Notes: generated by a model from the letters alone, not told the origin. A stretch of DNA of 52,949 nt from Nemertoderma westbladi (GCA_032718475.1 JAUCBJ010001829.1:1-52949); one strand, 5' to 3'; shown: positions 7,506-50,073, counted from the first letter of the stretch. Translations and numbers: made by a program.

Positions 7506-10163
7506 ATGAGTGTCTCAGACAAAGAGGCACTAGAGGACAGCTATGAGATGGCGGCTGGACCGCCGACTGACGATAGCGTAAATATTACTGTTGACGACAA
7601 TGCCGACTATGACGACGCAGCGAGCGACGCTGACGTAAGTGAACAGGAGGACGAGACAGTAACTAGTGAGGAAGAGCAAGCAGAGGTAATAGTATTAGGA
7701 TCCCCTACCACTACTGTAAGGAAGGACCGCACAGCAGCCCGGACAGAGGTGAGTGATAGGGAGGGTAGTGTAGCAGAAGCGAGAGCCCGGAGCCTGGTTT
7801 CCAGACCTGTGGGTATGGTAAGTGCCGTGGTCCCAACGGCTGTTAGAAGTACCCGTAGTTCCCGAAATAATCCTTCAAGTCCACCGAGTGTGAGTCAGGT
7901 AAGCGAGAGAGAACTTGACATCGCGATAAAGAAGAAACTTCGCGCGCACGCCGGACATATAACTCGGACGACGGACAAGGTAAGGAAGATGTTAGCTGAC
8001 TCAGCCAACATCGGAAGGGTAGAGTTAGTAGAGATTAGAAGAGGATATAACTCAGCGTTATTCAAGCAGACGGAGGAGCTTGCAGTCCTAGCGAAGACGG
8101 CAGTAGAGTCTCAGTCGAGCGACGTTGCGACGAGGATTTACGACAGGGTTTTAGCAGCCTTGTTGGAGCACCGCGAGTTATCGGAGCGATTCCGACGAGT
8201 TAGGACGGAGAACTGGCTGCTATGGGCATCACAAGCGCAGGCGACTCAGGTGAGTGACGCAGAGTTGAGAGACTTAGTGGAGCGGGAAGAGATCCAAGAT
8301 AAAGAAGAGCGCCGCTATCAAAGGGAAGTTACTAGCTGGCTGATGCAGAATGGAGTGGTGGTACCGGGCCAGGTGCTACCGACGACGGAGAACATCCAAC
8401 AGAGGACGTTGACTCCACCCGATGATGCATCTAGAGACAGTGGCGATTCCCAGGTTAGTCACGCGCGAGGTAAAGTTATATGTGCTAGATCCCTTGTTTC
8501 TCACAACTCGGTGGAGGAGAGAAGACGCCGACTGGACGAACAACAGGCGGAAGTTTTGCGTGCATTGGAAGCACGGAAGGAAGCCGAGCGGGAAAGGGAG
8601 CGAACACATAAGTTAGACGCGAAGTTGCGCGAGCTGGAAGATAAAGGTAAGCGTGAGCGAGCGGAACGCGAGCAGAAGGAACGTGAACTCCAGCTCGAAC
8701 GCGAACGCAAGGAACGCGAACTCGAACTTGAACGCGAACAGAAAGAACGCGAACTCCAGCTCGAACGTGAACAGAAAGAACTCGAACTTGAACGCGAACG
8801 CAAGGAACGCGAACTCGAGATCGAGAAAGAGCGACAAGTGTTGTATGAAGAAAAGGCGCGTGTGGAAGAAGAGAGCGCAGCGAGACGAGCGAGGGAAGAA
8901 GAAGAACGTAAACTGGCGCAGTTGGAAAGTGCGAGATTAAGTTTAGAGAGCGAAGAACGGACTAGGAAGGCGAATGAAATCGCCGAGAAGGGGATGCGAA
9001 TGATCGAAGAATGTGGGGCGAGTGTAGGGACAGAGTTGCGAGAACTGTTCGCACTGCAGAAGGCCGAACAGGAAGCGAGAACTCCGACTATACGCGAGTC
9101 GACGACGACCAGAATTCCTATACCCGGTCCAGCTATTACGAGTACACGGATCGCTAAACCATTCTCTACATATCGCACGCCAGTTGGTATTAGTGCTTCA
9201 CCTATCGCGCAGAATCCGCGTTATCGGAACACCGCACCACTATACACCGAACGCGACAACGAAGAATTTAGAGAAGAAACTCCGACGGGCCGAGTATTGG
9301 GCGAACCGAACCCGCGGGTTTGGAATACGCGGACGGAGCGCCGACCCAGTTCGACGGAGAACTTCCGGGTTAAACCGGAAGAGGGATCATATGAGAGACA
9401 GCGGATTACTCAGATAGAGCCGACTATACAACAGAACCCTAGCCAGGAATTTATTACGAGGGATGAGTTAAGTGCTAGTTTAGCGCAAGCTATATCGCCG
9501 CACATCCAACCTATAATGGACATGCTTAGCAACCTACGGTTAAAGGAAGCAGCCCAGGTAAGAAGTAATTCTAACCCTAGCAGGACTGAGTTAGATAAAG
9601 TCCAGCCTAGTCAACGAGTACGCATATCGGAGGAGACTATACCACATAGACCTCAGGTAAGGACGCCTGTCCCGAATATTCATAATCCCAATTTCGAAAA
9701 CTCAGCCGAGAAATTTATTCAGGAGGCTTGGGTCAGGGCCTCGGCGCGCAAACCATCGCGAGCGCTAAGGACTGACACCGAATCAAGCGATGAAGAGGAA
9801 GACATGAGACGTCAGAAGTCCCGAAACTATAAGGAAAGAAGGACGGACGCGGAGCAGGTAAGTTTGAACCACCGGGAAAGGACCAGACTTAACAACCCTG
9901 CGGAACTAAACCATTTGTTAACCCGGAACGACGCAACCCTTAGGGACATAGGTAAGTTTGCTGCTAGGCAAGGACTGCCGACGCAACAACCCCAGAAGTT
10001 TATGGGCAACCACAAGCACTGGAGGACTTTCAAAACCTATGTCGACGAGCAGCTGACCAACAGCACCAGAAGTTCAACTATTTGCTTTAGATGCTCCATC
10101 GAGAACCTAGAGCCATTGCTGACAACTTCGTTGGCAATGAGAGAGCATTTGAGTTGGCAATGA
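7506..10163 (+). CDS. gag: BEL/Pao Gag, N-terminal part (acidic N-terminus, long E/R coiled coil, PQKFMG..W..F motif); frameshifted near 10055
   Basis: 885-aa ORF. The BEL gag motif continues in the next frame as QKFNYLL*MLHREP, implying a frameshift plus an in-frame TAG at 10088-10090. Confidence 0.8.
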   Translation: MSVSDKEALEDSYEMAAGPPTDDSVNITVDDNADYDDAASDADVSEQEDETVTSEEEQAEVIVLGSPTTTVRKDRTAARTEVSDREGSVAEARARSLVSRPVGMVSAVVPTAVRSTRSSRNNPSSPPSVSQVSERELDIAIKKKLRAHAGHITRTTDKVRKMLADSANIGRVELVEIRRGYNSALFKQTEELAVLAKTAVESQSSDVATRIYDRVLAALLEHRELSERFRRVRTENWLLWASQAQATQVSDAELRDLVEREEIQDKEERRYQREVTSWLMQNGVVVPGQVLPTTENIQQRTLTPPDDASRDSGDSQVSHARGKVICARSLVSHNSVEERRRRLDEQQAEVLRALEARKEAERERERTHKLDAKLRELEDKGKRERAEREQKERELQLERERKERELELEREQKERELQLEREQKELELERERKERELEIEKERQVLYEEKARVEEESAARRAREEEERKLAQLESARLSLESEERTRKANEIAEKGMRMIEECGASVGTELRELFALQKAEQEARTPTIRESTTTRIPIPGPAITSTRIAKPFSTYRTPVGISASPIAQNPRYRNTAPLYTERDNEEFREETPTGRVLGEPNPRVWNTRTERRPSSTENFRVKPEEGSYERQRITQIEPTIQQNPSQEFITRDELSASLAQAISPHIQPIMDMLSNLRLKEAAQVRSNSNPSRTELDKVQPSQRVRISEETIPHRPQVRTPVPNIHNPNFENSAEKFIQEAWVRASARKPSRALRTDTESSDEEEDMRRQKSRNYKERRTDAEQVSLNHRERTRLNNPAELNHLLTRNDATLRDIGKFAARQGLPTQQPQKFMGNHKHWRTFKTYVDEQLTNSTRSSTICFRCSIENLEPLLTTSLAMREHLSWQ

Positions 10164-13100
10164 AGATGCTTAGCGACATCTACGGGAATAAAACCAAGAT
10201 GGCGCAGTCGATAGTAGAAGACTTGGGTAAGGGCGGAAGGATTACAACTCCGTTAGAGCTGTTGAACTTAGCGAACGCTATTTCAAACGCATTGGACATC
10301 TTGAAGACGGTGAATCGACCTCATCATGGTGATCACGCCGAAGTTTTAAAAAGCGTAATAAGACGTTTAAACATGGGTTATCGACAGAAATGGCGCAAAT
10401 TAGAGAATAAGTTGGAGGGTCAAGGTAAGGTGTTGACACTTCAGCATATTCATGACATGATAGCCACAGACGCAGTAGCAGAGATGAAATCAAATTTCTC
10501 AGAGGAGAATATGAGGGAGTCTAAACCTGTTACCGGTAAGTCTATGGTAAGTTTTGACGATGACAGGACCACTGTGACATTTAACTCAGTAGACAGATAT
10601 AATTCGAGTACCCCAGCCTTTAGATCAGACTCGCGAGTATGGTCAGGTGAGCGGTTAGATAGACCTAGGTTAAAGCAACAGGAGTTGCCGGATGGTTTTG
10701 TAGGTTGCCAATACTGTTTACTAAAGGAGGTAAGATCTGACGACCATAAGTTAGATAGTTGCAGACGGTTCAAAGAATTAAATTCGGAACAGAGAAGAGT
10801 TCAAGTGCGGACGTTGGACACCTGTTGGGCATGTCTTGCGCCAGGTCATGTACGGCGGCAGTGCTCGAACAGCAAGGACGGATGCATGGAATGCGGCAGA
10901 CTACATCACAAGTTGCTACATGCGGATTTCCATACCCCAACGGACCATTACTTACAGCGAAATCCTCAAAGGAAGGGGAGCAAAGAACCCGTATCGATAA
11001 GGAGGAATACGTACACTGGCATCCAGGATGATGGTTACCAACCAGGTTCGTCGGATGAGGATGGCGAGTCGAGCGCGAGAGAAGTGACCTGCCAAGGTTT
11101 CACCGCGGATAGTTCATCGACCAGCGCGTGGACGTATTTATCATCGGCCACGTCGGAAATATTTAGCGTGATTCCGGTGAAACTCACTGGCGATAAGGGA
11201 TCGAAGCGAATATATGTGATGTTGGACACTGCGTCCACATTATCGTATATCGACGAAGAAGTGGCGAGTGCTGTTTCTAGCTTCCAGGACACCGAGGAGA
11301 TCCAAATAGAGTTGAAGTCTATGCACGGAGTAGGAGACCTCAAGGGACACAGAATTTCGGTGGAACTAGACTCCCTACTTCCGAGAGACCAACATACTCG
11401 ACAAGAATGGAAAGCTTTGCCATTGGACGGATTTAAGTGTCTAGCTATGAAGGGATTCGGCAGGCAGTTAGGTAAGGTGCCACCGATGAGTCCCATAGCA
11501 CAGGAGTATTTTGACAAGCTCAGGATACCCAAACATCAGGTAGGTTATAGGAATGTTTCTATGTTGATTGGTGCAGAACAGCTGATCGCACACCAAATAT
11601 GGGAAACGAGACCAGCTGAGCCGCATGTCAATGGACCACATGCCCATAGGACTATATTAGGTTGGTATACAAGAGTACCTATGTCTTATGAGTTTACAGG
11701 TGGCGACAAGCCAATATATAGATACAACGAATTACAGCCTATAACTGAACCACCGTTAGTAGAACCACCAGACATAGACGAGTTTAGGAGAACCTGTATT
11801 GACCACTATAGTGACTTTAGCGAGTCGGACGAGGAGTTGATTCCCGATAATGTTAGATTGTCGGAACCACTTCACAATGACCGGACAGATAGTGAACCCG
11901 AGGACTGTTATCAGACCCGTGGGTCTGGTTCAGCGGCCCACGCTACTTATCTGAGTAACGTTTTGACTTATACCAACATAGTGGAGGGTCAAGTGGCTAA
12001 ATATCGAGACCTAGACATTTTCCAATACAGTGAGGAGGAATTACAGAAGGAATTGATACGCCAGGACCTCGAGACAGGAGCTAGAACCGTCGAATGGCTG
12101 GATAGGGACGCAATGGAACCCGGTGGATATGACCTAGCCATGTCCACTGATGAGAAACGGTCGTTGGAGATGATGGAAGACACCATACGTCTGCTACCGA
12201 CAGGACATTTTGAAGTTGGAATGTTGTGGCGTCGACAACCACCTAAGTTGGAGAACAACTATAACTTAGCCTTGAAAAGATTGAATGGAGTAAGGGCTCG
12301 GTTGTTGAAGAATCCAGACATTAGGGAGAAGTATTGCGCCCAGATCAACAACTATTTCGCCAAGGGATTTGCTGGGAAGGTAGAGGACCCTGACTTAGTG
12401 ACAGACCAGACTTATTACCTTCCACACCACTATGTGACTCACCCTGACAAGCCAGACAAAGTCCGAGTAGTCAACGACTGCGCAGCAGTCTATAGAGGTA
12501 TGTCCCTGAATTCAGAGTTGATGGATGGTCCCAACCTGAATAATTATTTGATTGGAATACTGTTGCGTTTTAGACAGCGGCAATTCGCATTTACTTGTGA
12601 CATCGAGGCGATGTTCCACCAGGTAAGAGCCTGTAAGGCAGACCAGGATAGCCTTCGCTTTCTCTGGTATGAGAATGAAGACTTATCCGGCCCAGTGGTT
12701 ACATACCAGATGTACGTTAGGATATTTGGCGCCCGCGATAGTCCAAATGGCACGCTGTTCGTTTTAAAGAAAACGGCAACAGCCCAGATTGGTAAGTATC
12801 CAGTAGAAGTGATCGAGTCCATCTTGAGAAACTTCTATATGGACGACGGATTGGTGTCCAAGGACACGGCGGAACAAGCCATAGAAGTGGCTCACGGCCT
12901 GCAAGAGTGCTTGGCTACAGGGGGATTTCCTCTGACCAAGTTCACTACGAACTCGGAAGCCCTATTAGAGTCGTTCCCGGTGAAAGATCGCGGGAGCGGA
13001 GACATTGAATTGGGGGTAGAACCAATCCCCATGGCGCGAGTACTGGGACTCGCTTGGAATCCGAATACGGATAAGTTCCAGGTAAGAGTTAGATTTGAGC

Positions 13101-13903
13101 CCAGTAGCCCAGACAAAGTTTTGACTAAGAGAATTTGCTTATCGACATTGAGTAGACTATTTGACCCGATGAACTTTATCAGTCCGGTTATATTACAGGC
13201 ACGAGCGTGCATGAGGAAAATTTGGTTGTCCGACCTAGAGTGGGACGAACCAATATCTCCTATACATGCAAAGCAGTGGAGAGAGTGGGAAGCCGAGTTA
13301 CATCTATTGAAAAACATAGATGTACCCCGCTCCTACTTTCCGAATCAGCTGGTATTCCCAGCTGATTTAGAGCTGCATATGTTTAGTGACGTAAGTGACA
13401 CCGGCTTTGGTATGGTAGCCTACCTTCGCCGAGAGGTGAGTCAGGACAAGTTTGAGACGGCCTTTGTGACTTCTAGATCAAAGACAATGCCGGTCAAATA
13501 CATGACTGTCCCTCGTGCAGAGTTACAGGCGGCTGTAGTTTCAGTCGAGGTAAGTAAGCAGATAAATGAGGAGTTAGATACGACATTGACCTTATTCTAT
13601 TGGACGGACGCATCCTTGGTGTTAGTATATATTGCGGCCGACAATATTGCACTAAAGACATTTGTGGCCAATAGACGCGCTCAGATCGTTGATTTTTCGA
13701 CGAAGGAACAATGGAGACATTGTCCGGGAGTGTTAAACCCGGCCGACATAACTTCGAGAGGTGCAATGCCGGCGGAATTCTGTCAGGAAGAGTCGCAGGA
13801 GTTTTGGTTGCATGGACCTGATTTTCTAACGAGGACACAGGAACATTGGCCAGAGCGACTAAAGATAGTGACCAATCCGATTCCTGAAGATGCAGAAGTC
13901 TAG
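10091..13903 (+). CDS. pol: Gag C-terminus (three Cys/His boxes), aspartic protease, reverse transcriptase and RNase H
   Basis: Gag boxes CQYC..H..C, CWACLAPGHVRRQC, CMECGRLHHKLLH. Protease MLDTAST (DTA instead of DSG/DTG). RT DIEAMFHQV, IFGARDSP, FYMDD. RNase H FSDVS, PRAELQAA, WTDA, NPADITSRG. Ends at TAG 13901-13903, with a second in-frame TAG at 13907-13909. Confidence 0.93.
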   Translation: MLHREPRAIADNFVGNERAFELAMKMLSDIYGNKTKMAQSIVEDLGKGGRITTPLELLNLANAISNALDILKTVNRPHHGDHAEVLKSVIRRLNMGYRQKWRKLENKLEGQGKVLTLQHIHDMIATDAVAEMKSNFSEENMRESKPVTGKSMVSFDDDRTTVTFNSVDRYNSSTPAFRSDSRVWSGERLDRPRLKQQELPDGFVGCQYCLLKEVRSDDHKLDSCRRFKELNSEQRRVQVRTLDTCWACLAPGHVRRQCSNSKDGCMECGRLHHKLLHADFHTPTDHYLQRNPQRKGSKEPVSIRRNTYTGIQDDGYQPGSSDEDGESSAREVTCQGFTADSSSTSAWTYLSSATSEIFSVIPVKLTGDKGSKRIYVMLDTASTLSYIDEEVASAVSSFQDTEEIQIELKSMHGVGDLKGHRISVELDSLLPRDQHTRQEWKALPLDGFKCLAMKGFGRQLGKVPPMSPIAQEYFDKLRIPKHQVGYRNVSMLIGAEQLIAHQIWETRPAEPHVNGPHAHRTILGWYTRVPMSYEFTGGDKPIYRYNELQPITEPPLVEPPDIDEFRRTCIDHYSDFSESDEELIPDNVRLSEPLHNDRTDSEPEDCYQTRGSGSAAHATYLSNVLTYTNIVEGQVAKYRDLDIFQYSEEELQKELIRQDLETGARTVEWLDRDAMEPGGYDLAMSTDEKRSLEMMEDTIRLLPTGHFEVGMLWRRQPPKLENNYNLALKRLNGVRARLLKNPDIREKYCAQINNYFAKGFAGKVEDPDLVTDQTYYLPHHYVTHPDKPDKVRVVNDCAAVYRGMSLNSELMDGPNLNNYLIGILLRFRQRQFAFTCDIEAMFHQVRACKADQDSLRFLWYENEDLSGPVVTYQMYVRIFGARDSPNGTLFVLKKTATAQIGKYPVEVIESILRNFYMDDGLVSKDTAEQAIEVAHGLQECLATGGFPLTKFTTNSEALLESFPVKDRGSGDIELGVEPIPMARVLGLAWNPNTDKFQVRVRFEPSSPDKVLTKRICLSTLSRLFDPMNFISPVILQARACMRKIWLSDLEWDEPISPIHAKQWREWEAELHLLKNIDVPRSYFPNQLVFPADLELHMFSDVSDTGFGMVAYLRREVSQDKFETAFVTSRSKTMPVKYMTVPRAELQAAVVSVEVSKQINEELDTTLTLFYWTDASLVLVYIAADNIALKTFVANRRAQIVDFSTKEQWRHCPGVLNPADITSRGAMPAEFCQEESQEFWLHGPDFLTRTQEHWPERLKIVTNPIPEDAEV

Positions 13904-13943
13904 GTGTAGAAAGCCTCTAAGTCAAAGTCTAAAGCCAAACTCA

Positions 13944-14001
13944 AGTCATTGGAGCGGCCTGAAGAGTCATTGGAGCGGCCTGAAGAGTCATTGGAGCGGC
14001 C
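13944..14001 (+). repeat. 21-bp tandem repeat (about 3 copies) in the RNase H-integrase linker
   Basis: AGTCATTGGAGCGGCC(TGAAG) at 13944, 13965 and 13986; translates as SLERPEE. Confidence 0.85.
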
Positions 14002-14198
14002 CAGAGACCTGTCAGACCAACAGACTTACGTGACTACTAGGTCCGGAAGGGTAAGTTACGACATAAAACCACCCTTGCAGACTAAACCGGAGTCACAATT
14101 GGTAAGTGACGGACAGAAAATGACCGACACAATGGAGCCTTTGGTTTCCAAACCTGCGGGTTTGGATTCGAAACTTCCATTAGTTAGCGGACAATTAG

Positions 14199-15812
14199 TC
14201 GCTGGCATTAGAGCCATGTAGTATTTATGACAAATTACTAAATTCGTCTGCCTCTTGGCTGACAATTTGTAAAAGAACTGCGTGGTTAAGCCGATACGTT
14301 TCGTACCTTTGTTTAAAACATTCGAAACATTTAGGAGAACGAACGAGCACTAATAGTGAGCGAATTCAGAAATTGAAACAACCTCTGACAGAGGATGAGA
14401 TTGATCAAGCGGAATTAAAGCATTTGAAACATTATCAAATGTGTGCCTTCCCAAAAGAATTCTATCTATTATCGGCTCAACGACCAGTTCTCTATAAACC
14501 CCTTAGAAAATGGAGTCTATTAATCCATAAGGGTTTAATTTATCATAGATCGAGAATCCAGACTGTCGACATAAATTCACAGTTTAGGTTCCCAGTGATA
14601 ATCCCTAGTCACCCAATAGAATTGCAAAGAGCGATTCTATGGGATATACACAAGAGGTTGCATCATGCGGGAAAGTTACACTGTTTGTCGGCAGCGAGAC
14701 AGCGATTCATTCTATTGCAGCCAAGCAGGGCAGTAGGCACTATGTACGACGCCTGTCTGGTTTGCAAGAGAGTGAACGCCAGAGTATTGGAACAGGAGAT
14801 GGCTGAACTCCCGGAAGCGAGAGTGCAGGCATATGACCCACCTTTTACGAATACAGGGGTGGATTGTTTTGGTCCGATTGAGGCAAAGAGTGGACGGCTG
14901 ACCCACAAGCGATGGGGTCTGCTACTGACATGCATGGCTAGTAGAGCCATACACATTGAGCGTGTGGCAGACATGTCGACCAAATCTCTGCTCCTGGCCT
15001 TAAAGAGATTTATGGCCAGGAGAGGACTAGTAAAGGTGTTCTACTCTGATAAGGGTACAAACTTTGTCAGGGGGAACAGCGAGTTAAACGCGGCTCATAG
15101 AGCGGCGCAGAATAGAGAAATCTCTGCAGCACTTTTGCCGCAAAGAATAGAATGGAGATTCAATACTCCAGAAAGTCCTTGGAGAGGAGGAAGTTGGGAG
15201 CGTTTGGTTCGCTCTGTAAAGCAGGCCATTGCCAAAACATTGCCTGTGAACAAACAACTTACCGACGACGAACTGGTCACAGCTTTCATCGAAATCGAGC
15301 ATACATTAAACTCGAGGCCGATAGCTATGTTGCCAGACGGTGTTGCTTTAACGCCGAATCATTTGCTAATGCAGAGTCCAGCATTTCTTGTGCCGGCATC
15401 AGAACCCGTTAGTGCCGACCTATATAGTCGTAAAAGCTGGAAGGTGACACAATTAGTGGCGTACACATTCTGGGAATATTGGCGGGAATACTATCTTCCC
15501 ATCATATCCACCAGAACAAAGTGGTACAAAATGGTTCGGAGTCTCCAAGAGGGAGATTACGTACTGATAACCGAGCCAATTGTCAAGAGAAAGTATTGGG
15601 AGACAGGAGTGATCTTGCATATACACCCAGACGTGCAAAACATAGTGCGCACAGTCACTGTGAAAATTAGGTGCAAGTGTCCGCACCCAAAGAAGTGTAA
15701 AACTAATGGTTTACAAACCTTGGACCGACCGGTCCAAGATATCGTGTTATTAGAGGAGACACGCATCGAGACGGGAGATTATAATTTGTCTCCTGCCTCA
15801 AAACAGAATTAG
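14199..15812 (+). CDS. pol: Integrase (HHCC plus DDE), separated from upstream pol by stops and a frameshift
   Basis: Frame of ORF 14373-15812 is open from 14199 (SSASWLTICKRTAWLSRY). Motifs H..LHHAG...CLVC, GVDCFGP, YSDKGTNF, GGSWERLV, LNSRP, LTPNHLL, FWEYWREYY. Confidence 0.93.
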   Translation, partial: SLALEPCSIYDKLLNSSASWLTICKRTAWLSRYVSYLCLKHSKHLGERTSTNSERIQKLKQPLTEDEIDQAELKHLKHYQMCAFPKEFYLLSAQRPVLYKPLRKWSLLIHKGLIYHRSRIQTVDINSQFRFPVIIPSHPIELQRAILWDIHKRLHHAGKLHCLSAARQRFILLQPSRAVGTMYDACLVCKRVNARVLEQEMAELPEARVQAYDPPFTNTGVDCFGPIEAKSGRLTHKRWGLLLTCMASRAIHIERVADMSTKSLLLALKRFMARRGLVKVFYSDKGTNFVRGNSELNAAHRAAQNREISAALLPQRIEWRFNTPESPWRGGSWERLVRSVKQAIAKTLPVNKQLTDDELVTAFIEIEHTLNSRPIAMLPDGVALTPNHLLMQSPAFLVPASEPVSADLYSRKSWKVTQLVAYTFWEYWREYYLPIISTRTKWYKMVRSLQEGDYVLITEPIVKRKYWETGVILHIHPDVQNIVRTVTVKIRCKCPHPKKCKTNGLQTLDRPVQDIVLLEETRIETGDYNLSPASKQN

Positions 15813-16508
15813 TGTTGGACGCAACTCACTTCGTATGCATTCCTCGTATGCAAATACAAGGAAATGCATAGGAGCAGGTTGGCGGTGATTTGCGTTGAGT
15901 TTTGTCTAGTGGGTATCAAAACAAAATTTTATTTTCAAAAAAATTTGGAAAATTAAAAATTTTAAAAATTAGAGTGAACCCAAGACAATTCCAGACGCTG
16001 TGTATAGACGCGTTTTAGAATTCGTCTATAGATATACAGTAATTTGAAAAGTCGTGAAGCCTGGAAAATAGCATTTAGAAACCATGGTGACGGCTATATT
16101 ACGTAGGAGTGTAAATTGAGTTTAGCAACTTCCACAGATTGGAGCCAACAGTGCAACTAGGGTGCTAAAGGTTAGTAGCACCAGAGGCGTACATGGACCC
16201 CACTCAGTAGTTTGCAGTGATGTGTGATGTTCGATTATCAAACCTGTGGGTTTGGAATAGTCGAGTATTGTGGCTATAGTCCTTTCTAACTACTGTAGTT
16301 TAGTACGAGTAATGGGAGTAGTTTGGGCATCAAAAAGTGAGTTGGTCACGGCCAGTTTATCTCCAAAGTTTTTGCGCTATGCATGGGAATAGGTTAGAGG
16401 ATAGTTAGTTAGGAAGAGACGGGATCTGGAGAGTCGAACCTGAACTGCTGGAAGGCAGCGGGGGGGGGGGGGGGGGGTGGGTTCGGGAGGTCTGTCTTTC
16501 GGCAACAT

Positions 16509-16527
16509 CTAACTGATTTACCCACAG
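16509..16527 (+). promoter_or_regulatory. Candidate branch point and 3' splice acceptor upstream of accessory ORF3
   Basis: CTAAC at 16509-16513 followed by TTTACCCACAG ending at 16527, 60 nt before the ORF3 ATG. Consensus donor G/GTAAGT at 6156-6162 in the 5' LTR. Confidence 0.4.
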
Positions 16528-16586
16528 TGTAATTGGTTACGTAACGGAACACTTATTGGGATATATATGTATATACGCGGGGCATA

Positions 16587-18842
16587 ATGGAGAAGGATAT
16601 TAGAGCGCAACCGCGCAGAGGATTTACTGCCAGAGAGGAGGCGGAGTTACCATTCGCGCGACCGGGATGTAAAGATTCGAACGTTTACTACCATGGGCGG
16701 TTGGTGATGGAGCTAAATGGGAAATACAAACCCACTTATGATAAGGAATTACGGAGGGAAAGAATGAGAGCGTTGGGGGACCGTATGGAAGTTTTGCGGA
16801 AAGAGTATCGCACTCGGTATCCCTACGACTTCGCTTTAGACGTGTGCGACATCAGCGCAGATCCGGACGAGGAGATCGCACGGCTGTACCATATGAATAT
16901 GTATTTACGACATGAAGAACCCCTACCTGCAGTCCGAGATCAGTTTGACGGAATGCATCTGTACCGGAGGACTCGAGGCGAGGATCAGGAGACGCCGAAA
17001 ATCTTCAGCGTGTACAAGTTGTTTTACAAGTGCGGTGAATGCATGAATAAACAAGACATGGCGATTCCCGACCGACTGGACGAGCAACATCCAGAACCGA
17101 TATTAACGCGATGTCAAGCTCACCAGTTCCTTAGATATAACGAGGGAGGTTACCTGATGAGCAACCCGATGATCAGTATCGACTTCAGCGGAAAGCGACC
17201 TCCGAGACCCATTACGCCGACCGTTACGACATTAGATCCGTATACGGAGATTAAACCCTGTTCGACACCCAGTTTGATAGAGACGGCAGCGGCCATTTCG
17301 CTGTACCGAGCCTACAAGGATCTAGAGGCGCGGCGCAAAGCGGCACGGGACTCGGGTACCAAACCCGCGGGTTTGGAGCTCTCGAGTCCCTGGACTGCGT
17401 TTACTTCACCTCACCGAGCGAGAACCCTCACTCCTGAGCATCAGGACGACATAGACGCGTTGCGACAGGAGGAGCGAGCGGCGAAGGCGAAAGAGTTATT
17501 CGAGAATAGGATAGCGGAGTATAATAAGACCGCGGATAGACATCAAGAGGAGACGAGGAGAGTGACCGGATTTGTTCCACAGGCCGTATCTCAACCCCGA
17601 CCGGTGTATTATTCCGACGGCAACGAACCTGCGATATTAGTAGATCATCCGGAGTCGCGAGAAGCGATAAGATTCTTGCCGATGGTAAGAATGGCGGATC
17701 ATTGGAACGTTGACTGTCTACGGGAAGTTTTATGCGCGAAGTTCTTGCGTGATGTCCCAATGCAGATCACAGATTATGACACATTGGACAAGATTGGAGC
17801 TCCGGGGAAGGAGAGCAAACTGTTTGGATGGTTGGATAAGTACATCAAAGTATGGGTCGCGGTGGCTACATTCCCAGACGACGAGGAGGTAGACCAGACG
17901 TGGCTGAGGAGGAAGGGTTCTTACACCCGATATGATGACCACAAGGCTATCGAGCGCATGTGGACCCCATCAGACGAGATTCAGCGTCAGTGGAGGAAAA
18001 CGGAGGAATCACTGCAGGATTGGAGGGTGATGTTCTATGACAATGAAGGAGGGTCCCATCAGGAATGTTTGACTAGCAAGTGCATTCAAATTCGCGCAGC
18101 CGATGGTGTGACTCATGTGTTTATGCGCGTGAGGGCGGATAGAGAGAGACCGGAGCCCATCATAACGACACAATATCGGAGGGGGAAGGATCCTAGGGAG
18201 CAGATTTTGGAGGTATGCAGGCGAGGAGGTATGCACGGAGCGGAGCGTATCGACGCCAGGATGCTACCCAAGAAAGTTAGAGAGGCTATTCTCAACCAAG
18301 ATTACGTCAAGGTGGGATCGGGAGTCCAGAGCGATTTGGAGAGTGACTTCAACGCCATGACTGATCTGGAAGATAGATTGCCGAGACCATTCGTCGACAC
18401 CAAGCTATTGTTGCTATGGGCACAGGATATTGGAATTTATAGGGAGTATCCCAACTCTGCCAAGACTGGTATGGGCTTCATAGCACACTTATTGTATAAT
18501 TGGGACTTTAAGTTAAAGACGCAGAAGAAATACGAGGAGGCGTATGGCGAATACAACACGCCACCGGGAGCGGAGTTCAAATCCCACTTCAAGCGGCAAG
18601 CGTTAGTGTATTGGAACATTTGCGCGCCACCCCGTGCGTCGCTACAATATTATTTGGTGCTTGAGTCGAACACGGTGACTTGTTTATTAGTGGATATCGT
18701 TGCGCGAGTTTTGAAGCTGCCATCCATTGGTATTCGGAGGAGATCAATACGTTCGCTCGAAAGGGGGAATCCAATCCGACGTGATGAAGCTTTTCTTAAC
18801 CCCGTTCTTCAACCAATCGTTAGAGAATACGTCGATGGTTAG
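16587..18842 (+). CDS. Accessory ORF3, part A: unknown N-terminal region plus WRN/EXD/Mut-7-like DEDD 3'-5' exonuclease domain
   Basis: ExoI VMFYDNEG...CIQI (D 18039, E 18045); LPKKVREAILNQDYVKVGSGVQSD (ExoII D 18333); FVDTKLL; KTGMGFIAHLLY; W....P....LQYYLVLE (ExoIII-like YxxxE, 18651-18665). Probable +1 frameshift near 18720. Confidence 0.7.
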   Translation: MEKDIRAQPRRGFTAREEAELPFARPGCKDSNVYYHGRLVMELNGKYKPTYDKELRRERMRALGDRMEVLRKEYRTRYPYDFALDVCDISADPDEEIARLYHMNMYLRHEEPLPAVRDQFDGMHLYRRTRGEDQETPKIFSVYKLFYKCGECMNKQDMAIPDRLDEQHPEPILTRCQAHQFLRYNEGGYLMSNPMISIDFSGKRPPRPITPTVTTLDPYTEIKPCSTPSLIETAAAISLYRAYKDLEARRKAARDSGTKPAGLELSSPWTAFTSPHRARTLTPEHQDDIDALRQEERAAKAKELFENRIAEYNKTADRHQEETRRVTGFVPQAVSQPRPVYYSDGNEPAILVDHPESREAIRFLPMVRMADHWNVDCLREVLCAKFLRDVPMQITDYDTLDKIGAPGKESKLFGWLDKYIKVWVAVATFPDDEEVDQTWLRRKGSYTRYDDHKAIERMWTPSDEIQRQWRKTEESLQDWRVMFYDNEGGSHQECLTSKCIQIRAADGVTHVFMRVRADRERPEPIITTQYRRGKDPREQILEVCRRGGMHGAERIDARMLPKKVREAILNQDYVKVGSGVQSDLESDFNAMTDLEDRLPRPFVDTKLLLLWAQDIGIYREYPNSAKTGMGFIAHLLYNWDFKLKTQKKYEEAYGEYNTPPGAEFKSHFKRQALVYWNICAPPRASLQYYLVLESNTVTCLLVDIVARVLKLPSIGIRRRSIRSLERGNPIRRDEAFLNPVLQPIVREYVDG

Positions 18843-20295
18843 GAGAGGATTAGCGATATTCGAAGGAGTATATCGACAGAACATCGGAGATTTGGGAGAC
18901 CGACCGTCGATGGAATATCCGACGCCAGAAGCCTTGGAGAAGTGGTTCGGGAATCAAACCCGCGGGTTTGGTACTCCCTTCCACTCGGAGGCTGATAGAC
19001 CCGTTAAGGAGGGTTGGCCGGAGACGTTAGTAGAGGTGTTCGGAGTAGATCTTCCGGTGGAGAAGACATATCCGAAACGAACGCGGGAGGAAATATTGGA
19101 GATAGAGGACAAGGGCGAGGATGTTTACTTTGTTCCGGATCGACAACCGCTGACCGGAGAGGACGACATCGTATTAGACATTGGGAAAGAAGGAAGTGCG
19201 AAACCGATTGGAGACCTCATATACGAGAGGGCCTGGTTTCCACAAGCGCGTAGGTGTAAGTTGTGCGGCAGCACAAGGCACAATCAAAAGTCGTGCGACG
19301 CGGTAGTAGAGGCGGCGCATAAGGTCTGCCGTTGGTGTAGTGAGACCGACCATTCGTTTCACACGTGCACCGTCTTCGTTTCTCAATGCGGATATTGTGG
19401 GGTAAAGGGACATCGCAGCGCGAGATGTCAGCTGCGAGATGATTCCTTCCAAAACCATAGCGCTAACCTACTTCGGGAGATGTTAGATAAGTGGGAGAGT
19501 GTGGCCGACTACCACATCCAAGCGCAGATGCGTTGGTTACCATTTAAGGCGGGATACGGATTCTGGGCAGTAGACCCATCTCACGTTGCATATGAGCCGT
19601 ATTTACAGTCTTTGTCACAGTATCAAGAGCTCATCCTGACTGCTCAAGACCTTCCACAAAACACTGGAGTTATCGTAGTCCGAGAATACTTCAGACAGTT
19701 AAATATGGATAACAAGTATACTTGGAACTTTGTTGCCATTTGCGACCGGATTACAAAAGGTCTGTTTTCGGAAACTAGAAAAGTGGTACGCGCGCGAGGT
19801 GATTGGAGGATGGCGGCTATACAATACCGCAACGAATTCTTGTTGACTCATGTACCAGTGGGGTCATTGACCACTGAGAGGATACAGGAACAGAGAATCG
19901 CAGCGACCACAGCGACAACCACTGGAGCTCAAGGCTCGCGGAGAGAACCAGGAGGAGAGGTCCAAGACAAGCGTCAAGTCAAGGACGACCACTATCACTC
20001 TATTATAGAAGCACAGAGGTTGCAGCGCAAGGCGCAGGGTGCGTTGGAAAAGGCGCGCGTGCAATTGCAGAAGGAAGAGTTGGCGGAAGCGACCATAGGA
20101 GCACAACAATCGGGACGAGGCCAAGGTAGAAGTACCAGCCGGGATTCTGTCGGGGCTCAGGGAACATCGTCGCCGGTTCCGGGGAGTGACGCCTCACGGA
20201 CGCCGTCAACAGAATCTACTAGAGGACGCTTAGTGTATCTGGGAAGAGGGCGAAAGAGGGTAGCGAGCCCAAAGAACCCAGGAGCGGGTCAGTAA
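18715..20295 (+). CDS. Accessory ORF3, part B: three CX2CX4HX4C zinc knuckles, helical region, basic disordered tail
   Basis: CKLCGSTRHNQKSC, CRWCSETDHSFHTC, CGYCGVKGHRSARC at 19255-19428. Frame open from 18715; removing one C near 18720 joins parts A and B into ~1,235 aa. C-terminal GRGRKR is NLS-like. Confidence 0.75.
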   Translation, partial: SCHPLVFGGDQYVRSKGGIQSDVMKLFLTPFFNQSLENTSMVRRGLAIFEGVYRQNIGDLGDRPSMEYPTPEALEKWFGNQTRGFGTPFHSEADRPVKEGWPETLVEVFGVDLPVEKTYPKRTREEILEIEDKGEDVYFVPDRQPLTGEDDIVLDIGKEGSAKPIGDLIYERAWFPQARRCKLCGSTRHNQKSCDAVVEAAHKVCRWCSETDHSFHTCTVFVSQCGYCGVKGHRSARCQLRDDSFQNHSANLLREMLDKWESVADYHIQAQMRWLPFKAGYGFWAVDPSHVAYEPYLQSLSQYQELILTAQDLPQNTGVIVVREYFRQLNMDNKYTWNFVAICDRITKGLFSETRKVVRARGDWRMAAIQYRNEFLLTHVPVGSLTTERIQEQRIAATTATTTGAQGSRREPGGEVQDKRQVKDDHYHSIIEAQRLQRKAQGALEKARVQLQKEELAEATIGAQQSGRGQGRSTSRDSVGAQGTSSPVPGSDASRTPSTESTRGRLVYLGRGRKRVASPKNPGAGQ

Positions 20296-20787
20296 TACAT
20301 TATAGCACAGGGCGACAGACTCTAGATATATACATCATCGTCGCTCTGATGTATATTGTAGCATTTTAGAAATATCCGACTAGACTCATATACACTAGTT
20401 GCGCTGTTTTGAATTTATATTATGAGAGAGGCGAAGGAAGTGATTGGGGAGACAAACCTGCGGGTTTGGCTTACTCCTTTCACTTGCCCTAGCAAATTTT
20501 TTATATTTGATCTTGTATATAGTAATCATTATGTAAGAACGAACGAGAAACAATATTTTGTAAATTTAATTTGTATGTAATAATCGTTAAACAGTGAGAG
20601 AGATAATATTTGTAAATTTAATTTGTATGCAATTCATTATGCAATATCTATAGCAATATTTTGTAAATAGTAGGATTTATAGTATCAAGTATTTAGATTA
20701 TTTGAAAGGAAATTTATTTTGTTTGTATACATCACCTATACTCTTCTACAGTTGGAGGGAAACATTGTATGATTTCCCTTGGAGCGG

Positions 20788-23045
20788 TGTTACGGTATAT
20801 GGCGCTGTACACATTATTAGCCATTATACAGTATAATATATTGGTTCATTATACAGTATAATATATTAGTCCATTATACTGTACGCAATATTAGTCCGTT
20901 ATGCAATATAATTATTTAGATAAGGCATAATAGCGCAGTGACATTTAGATAAGGAAATTGAAACGCCCATATATTTTGAATTCATCCATTTTGTATAGTA
21001 TGTAGCCCTACCTACGTAATTTTGTATTAGGATATAAGTAGATAGTTCCAGGGTAGCAAGTTCAGTTGGACCCTGGATTTTGTGCTTGCTGTTATTAGCT
21101 TCGATAGGGCTAGCATCTAGGGACGCTATCCTAACCATTCCGCAGCCAGGGACATGATCCATTACCATATATGGTAATAATTCGCGGTTAGGAAGCCCTG
21201 AGGTTCACAATCCGGCTTTCTAATTGGACTAACTGTTTCCAGGTTGGTCTAATGTTAGCGCGGACTGGAGAGCCAATAGGAGAGCGATTGCATCACCCTT
21301 ATTGCATCACCCTTCTCGGATCACCTATAAATTGGCGGTTTGCCGGTAGAGCTGTACCTATATCACCCTTCACCTACTTTTAGGAGTACAATTTTGTGCG
21401 TATTTTCTGCATTTCTACCCTTTGATTAATTTTCTTGGAATGATTCGTTAGTGTTATTATTCTTAACTGTGTTTCTCAATCAATCCTATTGATTACTGCT
21501 AATTACAACCGGAACTATGATTTCTACCTCTTTCGTTAATGGTTCTATGTAATTCTTTTCGACGCAATAATCCTACGGGATTTCTGAGACTGTCAGACTT
21601 GTGATTTGCATGCGCCGCTACGGTAGCTATTCAATAAATGGAGGGCTAAGGTGCCAGTAGGCGGTGGGCTCATCGGGGGGTTAGCGACGAAGGGAGTGCG
21701 GAGGATTCAAAGGCGGGCAACGCTGGCGGGGGGTCAACGTTGTGGTCGGGCAATTTGGACTGTAGGTTGGAGACCGCTCGCTGGTACAGTAATTAGGGGG
21801 CTGATGATCCAGGTTTTGTCTCTATTTAGTATTAGGGGGCAGGAATTGGGTTAGTTAGGAAGCCTAGATGTACCCGGGAGGGGCCTGCATACCTTACAGT
21901 AGATTGCGAATTAGTCAATTGCGAATTATTATGTTGCGAATTATATAATTGCAGATTGTATAATTGCAAGTCGTGCTATTGTGATCTGTGATTGCTGACG
22001 CTGATTGGTGTGTTACTGAAGTGTGCCTATGATTACGAATGCTTAGGTAGGCGCCCCTTTCTCTTTGATTGATTTCTATTTCTTAGTTACAACAAATAAT
22101 TACTGATTAGGTCAAAGTAATACGGCATTTTAGGCTATTACTAGCGAAACCTGTTGTGTAATAAATTAGAATTACGCATTCTGGAACTCTTAGTAATTAG
22201 TGCGCTGTTACATATTTGTGACTGTAATTGATTAGTAAAATTAAGAATTAGTACGCAGCATAGCGGAGAGTAGCTAAGGTAATAATTTAGAGTACCGTAA
22301 ACTATTCACGCTGAGCGGTTATTTGCATTAGCGGGCAATAAGCTAGATCGCAGTAGTCAGTACGCAAGACACTAGTAAATTGCTGGCCTAAAGCCAGCTG
22401 CAGGCAAGTTTAGACCCAGAGCGGTATCACCCACGAAAGACATTGTACCGTACCATTATTTGATTATTTTAAATATTCTCGCATTCACACATTCCGTTAG
22501 GGAACCCTCAGTATTCGCGATTAGAAAAGACGTAAGCATTGGCGTATTTCAGTAGTAAAATTAGGCGTAAGAATACTCTGAGTGCAAAGCCCCTCGCACT
22601 CGTCTTAAGTAAGCTTAGGGAGCCGACTCGGGTTTGTTGTTTTGGTTATTCCCGCGTGGCTCATAGATTCGAACAGTTAGCTCTCTATCGAGCGATCGGT
22701 AGAGAAAGGAACAAGCGATTTTGCAGGAGCCGTGTAAATTTAGTAAAATATATTAGCGGACGGCAGATTAGCGCCATCCAACGGTAAGTAGCGGTTTTGT
22801 ATTTAGCAGCCTTTACAATTTAGTAATAGCACGCTCCTGATCCCCTTTACTTAACAGTAGAGCAGTCTTTGTGTCTTATTGGTTAGGCGAGAACTCATTA
22901 GGTTGGCAGAGAAGTATACGGGTATTTGTCTGTTCAACAGTTCTACTGTCAGTATAGGAGTCGCGCTAGTTTAACAGTAGGGTATGTGATTTGCTGTTGC
23001 TTGCAACAGTAAAGAGTGTATTCAGAGTTAGACTATTGTTTAACA
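20788..23045 (+). repeat. 3' LTR (2,258 bp)
   Basis: Copy of 4161-6418. Preceded by a short purine-rich tract GGAGCGG (20781-20787) in the PPT position and followed by TSD AAGGA. Confidence 0.96.
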
Positions 23046-24365: not shown

Positions 24366-24510
24366 CAATCATGGTGGGTACCGATGACTTTCTCAAATGT
24401 GTTTGTTTGTGTTTTTATGTGTTTGTATACACACAACTGCTTGAAACTTAATGTTGATGGAATTGGATGAAACTTTGATGATAGGTTCATTATCGGACCT
24501 AGTTGTGTAT

Positions 24511-25416
24511 TAAATCGAATCAGGGATCCCATTGAGAGATTGCTCCGTGGAAATCAGAATGGGTTCCATAAAGGTCGTGGGACCATGGAGCCCATTTTGG
24601 CACTTAGAAGGATAATTGAAGAGTTATCAACAAAGAAAGACAGGCATCTGGCTGTTATCTTTGTTGACTCCTTCAAGGCCTTTGATTCAGTCTCTCGCTC
24701 ACGTATGTTCAGCATACTTTCATTATATGGGATTCCTGATGAAATTATTGCAGCAATCAGATCAGTATACGATGGTTCGACCAAATTTGTGTCTACTGTT
24801 GACGATGACACAGAACCATTTGAAGTGTTATGGGGCGTCCTCCAAGGAGACACACTTGCACCATTCTTGTTCATTATTGTGGTTGATTATGTTCTACGCA
24901 TGTCCTTATATCATCATATGATGATGGGGTGATGATAAATCCACCTACTGGCTCCAGAAGTCGAGGATATCCTGCCAAGTACCTAACTGATCTAGACTTT
25001 GCTGATGACTTAGGAGTACTCTCAGAATCACTAGAGGGAGCCCAACGGCTCCTCAGCTCATTAGAACATGCTGCTTCTAGTGTTGGTCTTTTTATTAACT
25101 CATCTGGTGTCTCATTGGTTCCCCCAAGCTTGACACTAGAACAAAATCGCCTCCACTTTGAAGGACATTGCTTTCGCCATGAGGACCAGCCAGTGCATAA
25201 TCTATTACTTTGGCAGCCTCATGGAGTGAATAAGCATGGTGGACAGCCCATGACTTTCTTGAGACGCATCTTAAAGGACACTGGCCTTGAAGATGCGGAT
25301 GATCTAGCAAATGTCATGGGTGATAGGGAGTTGTGGCGGCGCAATTTTGTCGACAAGCCGGCACAGCATTCTTAAAAATGTGCTGCAATGCAGCATGCCG
25401 ATCCTAGTAGTAGTAG
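24511..25416 (+). mobile_element. 5'-truncated, internally deleted RTE-clade LINE
   Basis: RT motifs QNGF..GR, F.D..KAFDS, GVLQGDTLAPFLF, LDFADD. (TAG)n tail; TSD TAGTTGTGTAT (24500-24510 and 25417-25427). Lacks about 400 bp present at ~47787-48192. Confidence 0.9.
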
Positions 25417-26869
25417 TAGTTGTGTATGGAAGGTTTTGGTATGAGGAACCTGTTGGTTACCTAACAACAGTGAAATTAAATATAGAATAACTGATCATAA
25501 TCATAGAATTCACTCAATCAAAATTATGTTGACACCTCATAGGGAGCATATATTGGACATGGTTTCTGCAGTTACGCTTTCGGCAATTACAGTTTATTTC
25601 GTTTAGAATTCCAAAAGAAAATACATTGCCACAAACACTGTTTTTTTAAACATACAATATTTATACTATTGAATTTATATACTAAGTAAATGAAATTCGT
25701 GAGTAGTGGCTTGGAACACATTGTTGCTAATGACCATTCCAAGAGGATCATTCCTTAAGAATCCCTTCTGCTGTACCATATTTAGTGTTTGAATGATATG
25801 TTTTTAACTACTCCATACCCATTTTAAACCCGCACACCCCCCCCCCCCCCCCCCCCCCACTTAAGTGCGGTGTGATCCTCTACCCTTTGACGGATATGCC
25901 TACTGTATGTTTGCATTAGCCCCCATGTTTCAGCCCGCATCCTTGACACCGTTAGCGACCTAACAGCTACAGGCAACCCGCCAACTTGCAGACTACTACC
26001 CCACTGCTAGCAACCTGCACACCTGTCTGCATGCAGACTGCCACCCTAGTGTAGTACAATATTACTACCCCCTTCGGTTTACAACCTCCTACAGCATATC
26101 CACTGTTTAAGCGCTAACCTGTTTATCTCTTCGCTTGATTTTACCACAGTAGTACTTAATAACCTATCATTAATCTGTTTTTACTGTACTGCAGCACCAC
26201 CCTTTCATGTGTACATGTTTTTAGATTATGTAGGAGGAGGAGAGGCACAACATCAGAGTCTTATCCAGGTTGATGTTGGAGTGGAAGGGAAGCAGAGTGC
26301 CATCTTATGGGTGCTTAGATGAGAAACAGGTGGTGTGCTGCACACTGATGGGGTTGACACTGCTAATGTGAATGTAAAGGTCAACACTTATTGTGGTCTT
26401 TGCATGATTTATCAATTCCTTAGCAATCACTGCATTCTTCCTGCTTGCTATAGATTTCCATCATCCCTTTCTTTAACCTTTTTCCTTCCTCATTCAACTT
26501 TGCTTCACAATTAATGTATATTTATTTAGTATTTAGTATTTTACAAATAATTAATTAATAATAACATAGCACAATAAATCGACACATGGAGGGGTAACCG
26601 AGTTGTTTAGTACCGATAGTGGTGCCCATTGACCGCAAGTGAAAATAGTGATCTTCAGCGCAAATTGACCTCAAGTGAAATAATGTATAGTTTATTATTT
26701 TGGTCAGAAAACACCGCCACGGTAACCTGCTTCTTTCCCTTAATGTTTTTAATCCAATTAAACTAATTTTTCAAACAAACTAAAATTTATTTTGTGTTTG
26801 TGGTTATTTTGCGCCATTAACTCCTTTAGTAATAAATATATTAGTTCTACATTAATTTTTCTGGGCTCA

Positions 26870-48504: not shown

Positions 48505-48533
48505 TGGCTTCCTTAGGAATAGGAGTAGTAGGG

Positions 48534-50004: not shown

Positions 50005-50073
50005 GTGGAACAATAACCTTCGAATTTGTTCGTTGACGTTCGAATTTGTAAGACTCTCATTTAAGACCTGACA

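Follow-up and report, generated by a model that had tools for sequence, protein, structure and literature searches.

A long BEL/Pao retrotransposon of Nemertoderma westbladi carries a third gene (ORF3) between its integrase and its 3′ LTR, and across a multi-copy family this accessory gene forms an integral part of the element and is under selection. The encoded protein combines a domain that very probably adopts the DEDDy 3′–5′ exonuclease fold with three CCHC zinc knuckles. Our tentative reading is that ORF3 is an active exoribonuclease, predicted from sequence and made from a spliced message, that would trim or destroy host small-RNA guides or their precursors.

Architecture of the element and conservation of its third gene

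The window is the whole 52,949-nt stretch of DNA analysed (GCA_032718475.1 JAUCBJ010001829.1:1-52949), and positions are counted from its first letter. The element occupies positions 4161–23045 (18.9 kb), with all features on the plus strand. It is bounded by two LTRs of 2,258 bp (4161–6418 and 20788–23045) with TG...CA ends, which are 99.3% identical (16 substitutions); a 5-bp target-site duplication (AAGGA) lies directly before the 5′ LTR and directly after the 3′ LTR. Starting at the 5′ side, the gag N-terminal ORF (7503–10163) contains a coiled-coil repeat region and its frame shifts near 10.1 kb. The gag knuckles, protease (LDTAS), RT (YMDD) and RNase H follow at 10091–13903, and then the integrase (14199–15812; Integrase_H2C2 and DUF5641) with its HHCC and D,D,E motifs. 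A break divides the RT–RNase H region from the integrase in this copy. In addition to the motifs, the order is supported by Pfam, where the Pao-specific pol profile PF05380 (Peptidase_A17) scores 130.8 bits against a cut-off of 22.3, and DUF5641 at the end of the integrase 62.1 bits against 23.1. There were no Rfam matches within the element, and a scan of metagenome contigs with the integrase gave no relatives. The Pao-type pol, the DUF5641 integrase tail, the gag-PR-RT-RH-IN order, the TG...CA LTRs and the 5-bp duplication are shared with BEL/Pao (Belpaoviridae/Semotivirus), and the family is young and unusually long. While the usual BEL/Pao element has a length of 4.2–10 kb and LTRs of 0.2–1.2 kb (PMC3118150), this one has 18.9 kb and 2.26 kb respectively, and differs further in its non-env third gene, apparent self-priming and dispersed hairpins.

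Two overlapping sense ORFs lie between the end of the integrase (15812) and the 3′ LTR. The first frame runs from 16545 to 18842, with its first ATG at 16587, and the second from 18715 to 20295, so that the frames overlap at 18715–18842. From the ATG the pair spans 16587–20295, about 1,235 codons, as described in the initial annotation, which had taken the two frames to be a single gene. The N-terminal ∼475 aa (16587–18017) belong to no known family; its first 466 aa had no matches in Pfam, NCBIfam or the ESM Atlas. The exonuclease domain (18018–18716) comes next, followed by an acidic linker of ∼180 residues and then by three CX2CX4HX4C knuckles within 19255–19428 (19255–19296, 19327–19368 and 19387–19428), which had also been noticed at the outset. 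Among 10,000 shuffled versions of the second ORF, just one contained any knuckle. Behind the knuckles comes a conserved W..W..GF segment, common to the one homologue found (P0001, below), and the C-terminal part (19429–20295) ends in a low-complexity basic tail. A sequence resembling a branch point and 3′ splice acceptor (16509–16527) is located upstream of the ATG, and the ORF3 message would thus be a spliced subgenomic mRNA.

ORF3 occupies the position of env, and env (a fusion glycoprotein) was rejected because there is no signal peptide or membrane segment, as originally stated. The N-terminus is hydrophilic, and the highest 19-residue hydropathy (1.59) falls in the helix that closes the nuclease domain. 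A nested insertion was also considered and rejected.

Other copies were surveyed through contigs of four public sequencing runs (X1–X4) aligned to positions 17985–18860. In all four, essentially the whole contig depth over the break differs from the window there and keeps one continuous frame; the depth differing is 4944.8 of 4944.8 in X1 (4 contigs), 9717.8 of 9717.8 in X2 (2 contigs), 7871 of 7897.4 in X3 (4 contigs) and 3.82 of 3.82 in X4 (1 contig). The split is therefore peculiar to this copy, and the ORF pair is one gene in the family. Run X1 alone gave 1,012 contigs on the 876-bp nuclease stretch, ranging from >99% to <90% alike. Of the 38 nuclease-domain variants classified, 35 are synonymous (expected 34%; P = 1.3e-13; pN/pS about 0.045), and none falls in the five active-site codons. 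The nuclease domain is under strong purifying selection; the presence of the gene across the family and its non-neutral evolution, both at issue in the initial annotation, are thus borne out. In some copies large stretches of ORF3 are deleted, including part of the N-terminal region, with joints at 16456–18459 and 16734–17062. Contig depth is lower over ORF3 than over pol, and is unsuited to ranking genes.

The exonuclease domain and its homologues

All seven exonuclease motifs quoted in the initial annotation are present in the order given there, between 18036 and 18665. Pfam and NCBIfam by themselves placed no family on the domain. In the ESM Atlas the first match is a PF01612 cluster (score 0.93, recognition 2665), and the ten best family matches all belong to the PF01612 clan. 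Compared alone with a profile of 30 DEDDy sequences the domain scores 4.3 bits, which the best of 500 shuffles also reaches, and HHalign gives 3%.

Among 1.84 billion representatives there is a single match to the domain (P0001, E = 1.3e-5), encoded on a 9,449-bp contig. This remote homologue (27% identity) has the same domain order, with a canonical D-x-E and a set of three knuckles, and its matches to the two halves of ORF3 (3e-14 and 7e-7) are collinear with the gene. P0001 scores 15.2 bits on the DEDDy profile, where the best of 500 shuffles reaches 4.0. When the window domain and P0001 are taken as a pair, HHalign gives a probability of 78% and a score of 38.5 against the profile, in a match that covers the D583 segment; shuffles give 2%, and the best of 100 column shuffles scores 19.95. 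Word-based searches, covering lengths up to 1,315 aa, found no homologue with the window domain among 1,103 candidates, only P0001 itself with P0001, and none with the pair at 108–413 aa. No relatives were confirmed in metagenome contigs (142 and 19 stretches) or viral contigs (67). One plasmid match was rejected as due to chance, as was rotavirus VP4 in a PDB sequence search (E = 0.008), a 59-residue match against all other evidence.

The catalytic positions were assigned by MAFFT alignment of 15 bacterial DEDDy domains with P0001 and the window domain. D485 (18039) and E487 (18045) fall in the columns of the invariant D and E that form the ExoI D-x-E where strand 1 ends, a placement that depends on trimming, as untrimmed rows misplaced this motif. 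D583 (18333), after the K-V strand, lies in the invariant ExoII column, and Y689 (18651) of the QYY motif also falls in a catalytic column. In ExoIII the expected Y-x3-D is replaced by Y689-x3-E693 (18663), and P0001 likewise has Y-x3-E; the glutamate had been correctly read in the initial annotation. The domain is therefore classed as DEDDy-like, a D-E-D-E variant, and not as canonical. A literature search found no precedent for glutamate at the fourth acidic position. We predict that catalysis on balance survives this change, since D, E, D and Y are retained, and since this glutamate recurs in the 27%-identical homologue and is absent from the listed variants. The domain also carries two long insertions. 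No HRDC domain was matched after the nuclease in the second ORF3 frame or in P0001 at E = 1–10, in proteins divergent enough to escape Pfam.

An AlphaFold model built on the MAFFT alignment, and hence steered by its 15 bacterial rows, has a pLDDT of 63 (core 80–89). All 50 VIA matches listed for it are DEDD-fold proteins, the best with Z = 10.8, RMSD = 3.1 and 147 residues aligned. The unsteered single-sequence model (pLDDT 33.5, best VIA Z 4.7) is uninformative. The assignment of a DEDDy-type exonuclease to a BEL/Pao element is supported, and placement specifically with WRN, EXD1, EXD2 or Mut-7 would be tentative. Foldseek favours EXD2 weakly, its chains forming the first 11 rows (best E = 0.005) with no EXD2 in the guiding alignment; in VIA, diDNase, PolA-type, WRN (Z = 9.7), RNase D, Exd1 (9.4) and Nibbler (9.3) are tied within about 1.5 Z, and Egalitarian has 8.5.

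Hairpins, priming and the role of ORF3

A 17-base hairpin motif has six copies, none of them outside the element (mean expected by chance 0.01). They are located in gag (9307–9323), at the RH–IN junction (14149–14165), in the pol–ORF3 spacer (16239–16255), twice inside ORF3 (17360–17376 and 18955–18971) and in the 3′ untranslated region (20453–20469). Two further copies are weaker, making six to eight in total. Four of the eight sites fold with z below −3, and the other four no better than shuffles. The lower stems differ in sequence with pairing kept; covariation in the apical stem is within the range of shuffles (94 of 500 as high).

The primer-binding position immediately after the 5′ LTR (6419–6428) lacks the TGG start of a tRNA-type site. 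It is complementary at 9 of 10 bases to 5261–5270 within the LTR, a candidate self-primer and putative transcription start, and at 10 of 10 to the 3′ LTR counterpart (21888–21897). Of 3,000 random internal 30-mers, 3 did as well as this 10/10 complement at offset 0. The window contains no tRNA genes, and there is a competing TATA box at 4699. This is an apparent signature of Tf1-like self-priming rather than a tRNA site; self-priming has been described for Tf1 and Tj1 (PMC4600332).

On our preferred reading the ORF3 protein would probably be translated from the spliced message, and the DEDDy domain and knuckles would make it an exoribonuclease. By analogy with Trypanosoma brucei RNase D (TbRND), the knuckles would hold single-stranded RNA so that its 3′ end is led into the active site. 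More speculatively, the target would be host silencing RNA and not that of the element, and the trimming or destruction of small-RNA guides or precursors would blunt the small-RNA defence. Most LTR elements replicate without an exonuclease gene, and capture of a DEDDy gene has happened repeatedly in LTR lineages that are unrelated (PMC5408684). An optional gene that is captured repeatedly would therefore fit a role in host conflict. Mature piRNAs carry a 3′ 2′-O-methyl group that resists such enzymes, which counts against a small-RNA target. Also against the preferred reading are the copies with deletions in ORF3 and, in bdelloids, the lack of a clear link between the DEDDy ORF and copy number (PMC5408684). 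An elaboration, that the hairpins, spaced a few kilobases apart, recruit the knuckle-guided D-E-D-E enzyme to the element transcript to destroy or mis-trim piRNA or siRNA guides there, in a self-priming genome of twice the usual size, is improbable.

An exoribonuclease acting on the element's own RNA, by 3′ trimming in primer formation or transcript maturation, is a rather doubtful alternative. Such an activity might be required by genomic RNA or by a primer after cutting, and the apparent self-priming signature, with its 10-base LTR complement, points the same way; Rodriguez et al. suggest 3′-end processing of element RNA for the bdelloid DEDDy ORFs (PMC5408684). Against this, the start site at 5261 is only a candidate, with the TATA box at 4699 in competition, and a separate, probably spliced product must enter the particle. 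To our knowledge Tf1-type elements self-prime with no exonuclease gene, the cut being made by RNase H. About as doubtful is an RNA adaptor like Egalitarian, in which the domain and knuckles would bind the hairpins and route the RNA to particles or the germ line, with catalysis dispensable. The confinement of the motif to the element, the folding of half of the sites and the paired lower stems are consistent with this, as are the non-canonical fourth acidic residue and the two insertions; the DEDDy domain of Egalitarian binds 40–65-nt stem-loops, one of them in the I factor retrotransposon (bioRxiv 2025.08.03.668247). Yet the hairpins could be recognised instead by the Gag knuckles or by a protein of the host, the apical covariation and the remaining sites are no better than shuffles, and the D, E, D, Y and E residues remain in place with no listed variants, unlike decayed sites.

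It is quite unlikely that the nuclease proofreads or trims cDNA, enabling RT to copy a genome that is roughly double the length usual for BEL/Pao. The length itself would suggest this, and the DNA-acting PolA-type, WRN and EXD2 domains are among the top structural matches. The nuclease is not fused to pol, however, ORF3 and the LTRs themselves supply most of the extra length, the knuckles point to RNA, and the larger LTR elements Burro and Ogre are described with no such domain in the available portions of their accounts. A one-off or neutral passenger that does nothing for the retrotransposon, whether a nested element or a gene captured from the host, is largely refuted and scarcely credible. 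ORF3 has no close homologue in the databases searched, deletion variants exist, and in other copies no single contig spans both integrase and ORF3; against these stand the 1,012 contigs of run X1, the low pN/pS, the two copies of the element's own hairpin motif inside ORF3, and a GC content of 0.51, like gag (0.52) and unlike the flanks (about 0.30–0.36).

Comparison with known systems

If the guide-directed reading with hairpin recruitment were true, ORF3 would become the first demonstrated case of a transposon-encoded nuclease that attacks small-RNA silencing in animals. An animal transposon with a proven anti-piRNA enzyme would be a long-sought missing piece of the host–transposon arms race. 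Independently of this, the array of hairpins and the possible self-priming are features of BEL/Pao biology in their own right.

The initial annotation did not know of such a gene as standard in BEL/Pao. Our search, which covered the published literature, found no BEL/Pao element with an exonuclease, and none fused to a triple knuckle. The env position of a DEDDy ORF is already published, in the bdelloid LTR elements Juno1/2 and Vesta2/5 and also in Athena/Terminon, in a text from which BEL/Pao is absent; the same functional guesses were offered there, and the ORF shows no clear correlation with copy number (PMC5408684). The present element extends such third genes, until now confined to bdelloid elements as far as is known, to another LTR superfamily, and their repeated independent capture suggests a general accessory function. 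The Juno and Vesta host elements are gypsy-like and do not belong to BEL/Pao. Bdelloid ORF3 resembles the present one in its RNase D-like DEDDy domain, env position, lack of TM or coiled-coil segments, separate transcription unit and altered acidic tetrad, and activity is predicted in both, never shown for the bdelloid protein (PMC5408684). The tetrad is DEED there and D-E-D-E here, and no knuckles are described there, whereas the ∼1,235-aa protein has a triple CCHC array (PMC5408684). The bdelloid DEDDy ORFs came without evidence of selection, only env and GDSL ORFs having been tested and looking neutral (PMC5408684), in contrast to the strong purifying selection in this young multi-copy family.

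EXD2, WRN-exo, Nibbler (Mut-7), Exd1 and Egalitarian share the fold class of the ORF3 domain, but are only 6–18% identical to it and tied in rank with bacterial diDNase/NrnC, RNase D and PolA. We know of no triple knuckle or YxxxE in any of them. Egalitarian keeps all five DEDDy residues, which are nevertheless dispensable for RNA binding and oogenesis (bioRxiv 2025.08.03.668247); intact motifs alone are therefore no proof of a catalytic role.

TbRND (PDB 7c42/7c45) provides a clear cellular model for this compact nuclease domain. It has a similar layout, with CCHC knuckles arrayed in tandem behind a DEDDy exonuclease, and the fingers raise RNA binding and cleavage; its over-expression depletes guide RNAs (PMC7797062). 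It is among the VIA matches (Z = 8.3, RMSD = 4.1, 164 residues aligned). TbRND is a cellular mitochondrial enzyme with a canonical DEDD and four fingers after a short linker (PMC7797062), while ORF3 has three knuckles after its long acidic linker; TbRND serves as a working model, with no orthology implied.

The host element

ORF3 is the third gene of an LTR retrotransposon on the forward strand. Direct repeats of 2,258 bp (4161–6418 and 20788–23045; 99.29% identical on self-comparison of the window) form the 5′ and 3′ LTRs, which differ by 16 substitutions (K2P 0.007), have TG...CA ends and are flanked on both sides by a 5-bp duplication (AAGGA). Following the 5′ LTR are gag (ORF, 7503–10163), a single frame encoding gag knuckles, protease, RT and RNase H (10091–13903; Pfam Peptidase_A17, 130.8 bits), and then the integrase (14199–15812; DUF5641, 62.1 bits, and Integrase_H2C2). 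The element is a BEL/Pao retrotransposon of 18,885 bp. In the available text of PMC3118150 BEL/Pao elements are confined to metazoans and are usually 4.2–10 kb, with LTRs of 0.2–1.2 kb, whereas this one is longer on both counts. The host is accordingly an animal, as the ion channel ORF at 45265–46359 also indicates. The window copy itself is probably non-functional, because its reading frame shifts at about 10.1 kb, again in the stretch joining RNase H to integrase, and once more within ORF3; the change at ~10.1 kb may be either a lesion or programmed. Within gag, 33-bp tandem repeats (8664–8824) code for an ERE/KERE coiled-coil, and the repeat length varies between copies. The CpG observed/expected ratio is 1.05 in the element interior (6419–20787), 1.14 in ORF3, and 0.78 and 0.53 in the flanks.

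A tRNA-type primer site is absent after the 5′ LTR. The next ten bases (6419–6428) are complementary to LTR positions 1101–1110, at all ten bases in the 3′ LTR (21888–21897) and at nine of ten in the 5′ LTR (5261–5270); the full match was equalled by three of 3,000 random internal 30-mers. This is a putative self-priming signature resembling that of Tf1 and Tj1 (PMC4600332, available text); no description of self-priming for BEL/Pao was found in the literature searched.

A 17-base near-palindrome occurs at six sites, every one within the element (starting at 9307, 14149, 16239, 17360, 18955 and 20453 on the + strand; chance mean 0.01), with weaker copies at 7801 and 11911. The copies lie in coding as well as non-coding sequence and mostly cap longer stem-loops, whose lower stems differ in sequence between sites but remain paired. 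On folding, four of the eight sites form long hairpins (z below −3) and four have no clear gain over shuffles; apical-stem covariation is not in excess of shuffles, and Rfam has no match. The motif is a candidate packaging, dimerisation or transport signal. Two of the six sites lie inside ORF3, and the occurrence there of the element's own motif shows that ORF3 evolved as part of the element. Any functional link between ORF3 and either the hairpin or the self-priming signature would be conjecture.

Non-LTR retrotransposon RT gene fragments are located at 2764–3771, 24471–25417 and 46987–48505, the last two 97% alike, and the LTR element is inserted ~400 bp downstream of the first. The window also contains nested perfect inverted repeats that are MITE- or foldback-like (2205–2840; arms of 81 and 72 bp), a 364-aa ORF that looks intronless and encodes the ligand-binding domain of a Cys-loop ligand-gated ion channel (45265–46359; PF02931, 122 bits), and tandem arrays at 30001–30550 (68-bp units), 36277–37902 (87-bp), 50020–50777 (22/30-bp) and 51426–51824 (9/27-bp). 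The 22-bp array is repeated inverted at 52829–52948; these are possibly DNA transposon ends.

The predicted nuclease domain of ORF3

The two ORFs that make up ORF3 in the window (16587–20295), all seven exonuclease motifs and the three knuckles (19255–19428) are present where the initial annotation placed them; a single knuckle appeared in one of 10,000 shuffles. The protein shows neither a signal peptide nor a membrane segment, in agreement with the view that this is not env. Upstream of the ATG at 16587 are an out-of-frame ATG (16567) and a branch-point and acceptor-like sequence (16509–16527) that would fit the expectation for a spliced third gene. A run of ~20 G (16459–16478) lies between pol and ORF3, and a 2-kb ORF3 deletion variant begins beside it.

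The nuclease domain (18018–18716) matches nothing in Pfam or NCBIfam. The top rank in the ESM Atlas is a PF01612 cluster (0.93, 169 shared features, recognition 2665). Among 1.84 billion representatives the sole match is P0001, a remote homologue of 648 aa (E 1.3e-5), with 27% identity to the nuclease half of ORF3 (3e-14), 25% to the knuckles and next segment (7e-7), and an identical domain order. Against a DEDDy profile of 30 bacterial PF01612 domains (15 RNase D, 10 short NrnC-like and 5 PolA) P0001 scores 15.2 bits and the best of 500 shuffles 4.0, while the window domain alone scores 4.3 bits, the level of the best shuffle. HHalign gives the window and P0001 pair a probability of 78%, with a score over the ExoII segment of 38.5 where 100 shuffles reach at most 19.95, and gives the window domain alone 3%. 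With rows trimmed to the start of strand 1, MAFFT places D485, E487, D583 and a QYY tyrosine in invariant columns; with untrimmed rows ExoI and ExoIII are misplaced.

AlphaFold on the trimmed alignment gives pLDDT 63 and pTM 0.60. The first 11 Foldseek rows for this model are EXD2 (best E 0.005, none <0.001), and all 50 rows listed by VIA-align are DEDD-fold proteins, the top one at Z 10.8 (rmsd 3.1 over 147 aligned residues). Z is 9.7 for WRN, 9.4 for RNase D, 9.3 for Nibbler, 8.0–8.5 for Rrp6 and 8.3 for the trypanosome exonuclease TbRND. Steered by its alignment, the model is compatible with a DEDD fold, short of proof. The unguided single-sequence model has no usable fold. As to subfamily, EXD2, WRN, RNase D, Nibbler and Rrp6 are all among the matches of this predicted structure. 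Taken together, the evidence makes a DEDDy fold very likely. ExoIII is Y-x3-E both in the window (Y689, E693) and in P0001, and the glutamate is therefore a conserved variant, not decay.

ORF3 in other copies

Seven public runs from four studies were found, six containing part of ORF3. X1 and X2 are from one sample, possibly the source of the window, and X3 comes from the same organism but another sample. Contigs matching the element interior number 22,608 in X1 and 10,079 in X3 (30 of 30 bins covered), and 1,012 X1 contigs align to the 876-bp nuclease stretch, with identity from >99% down to <90%. At the break, where the frames overlap (18715–18842), essentially all contig depth in four of four runs differs from the window and restores one frame. 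The ORF pair does therefore join into one gene, as first proposed, and the split is a property of the window copy or its assembly. Some copies lack 16734–17062 or 16456–18459. No single contig among those of other copies spans integrase to ORF3.

Among 40 listed of 43 variants in the nuclease stretch, 38 were classified (2 at or past the break being excluded). Synonymous changes account for 35 and non-synonymous for 3, whereas only 34% of transitions would be expected to be silent (p 1.3e-13); pN/pS is ~0.045 over the 38. The codons of D485, E487, D583, Y689 and E693 are free of variants among those classified. Purifying selection is thus seen on the nuclease domain; outside that domain, where the knuckles and N-terminus lie, the ORF3 sample is 5 variants, 3 of them non-synonymous (among 34 coding rows classified from 40 listed of ~850).

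Possible function and relation to known elements

The closest architecture to ORF3 is that of TbRND, an exonuclease with CCHC fingers that provide RNA binding and boost cleavage, and whose over-expression leads to guide RNA depletion (PMC7797062, available text). By analogy, the ORF3 knuckles, which weakly resemble those of Lin28 and Air2 (E 0.1–3), would grip single-stranded RNA, and the nuclease domain would trim RNA 3′ ends. Replication proceeds in most LTR elements with no gene of this kind, and several lineages have acquired one; on these grounds we tentatively favour a role in host conflict, against small-RNA guides or precursors, while holding it at somewhat below even probability. Processing of the element's own RNA is a less probable role. 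It is also rather unlikely that ORF3 is an adaptor like Egalitarian, which retains the DEDDy residues yet does not require them (bioRxiv 2025.08.03.668247, available text). Proofreading is improbable, and neutral cargo very improbable indeed.

A DEDDy third gene in LTR elements is an already known kind. Rodriguez et al. 2017 described such ORF3s in the bdelloid Juno and Vesta elements, with predicted activity and the same functional guesses as offered here (PMC5408684, available text), and reviews restate the finding (PMC6431247, PMC6338049, available parts). No BEL/Pao element with an exonuclease gene was found in the literature searched, and the word 'exonuclease' is absent from the available part of PMC3118150. 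New, as far as searched, are the BEL/Pao host, the D-E-D-E site, the triple knuckle, the selection evidence and the accompanying RNA features. The active-site motif is DEED in the bdelloid ORF3s, as given in the accessible sections of PMC5408684, whereas it is D-E-D-E in the window ORF3.
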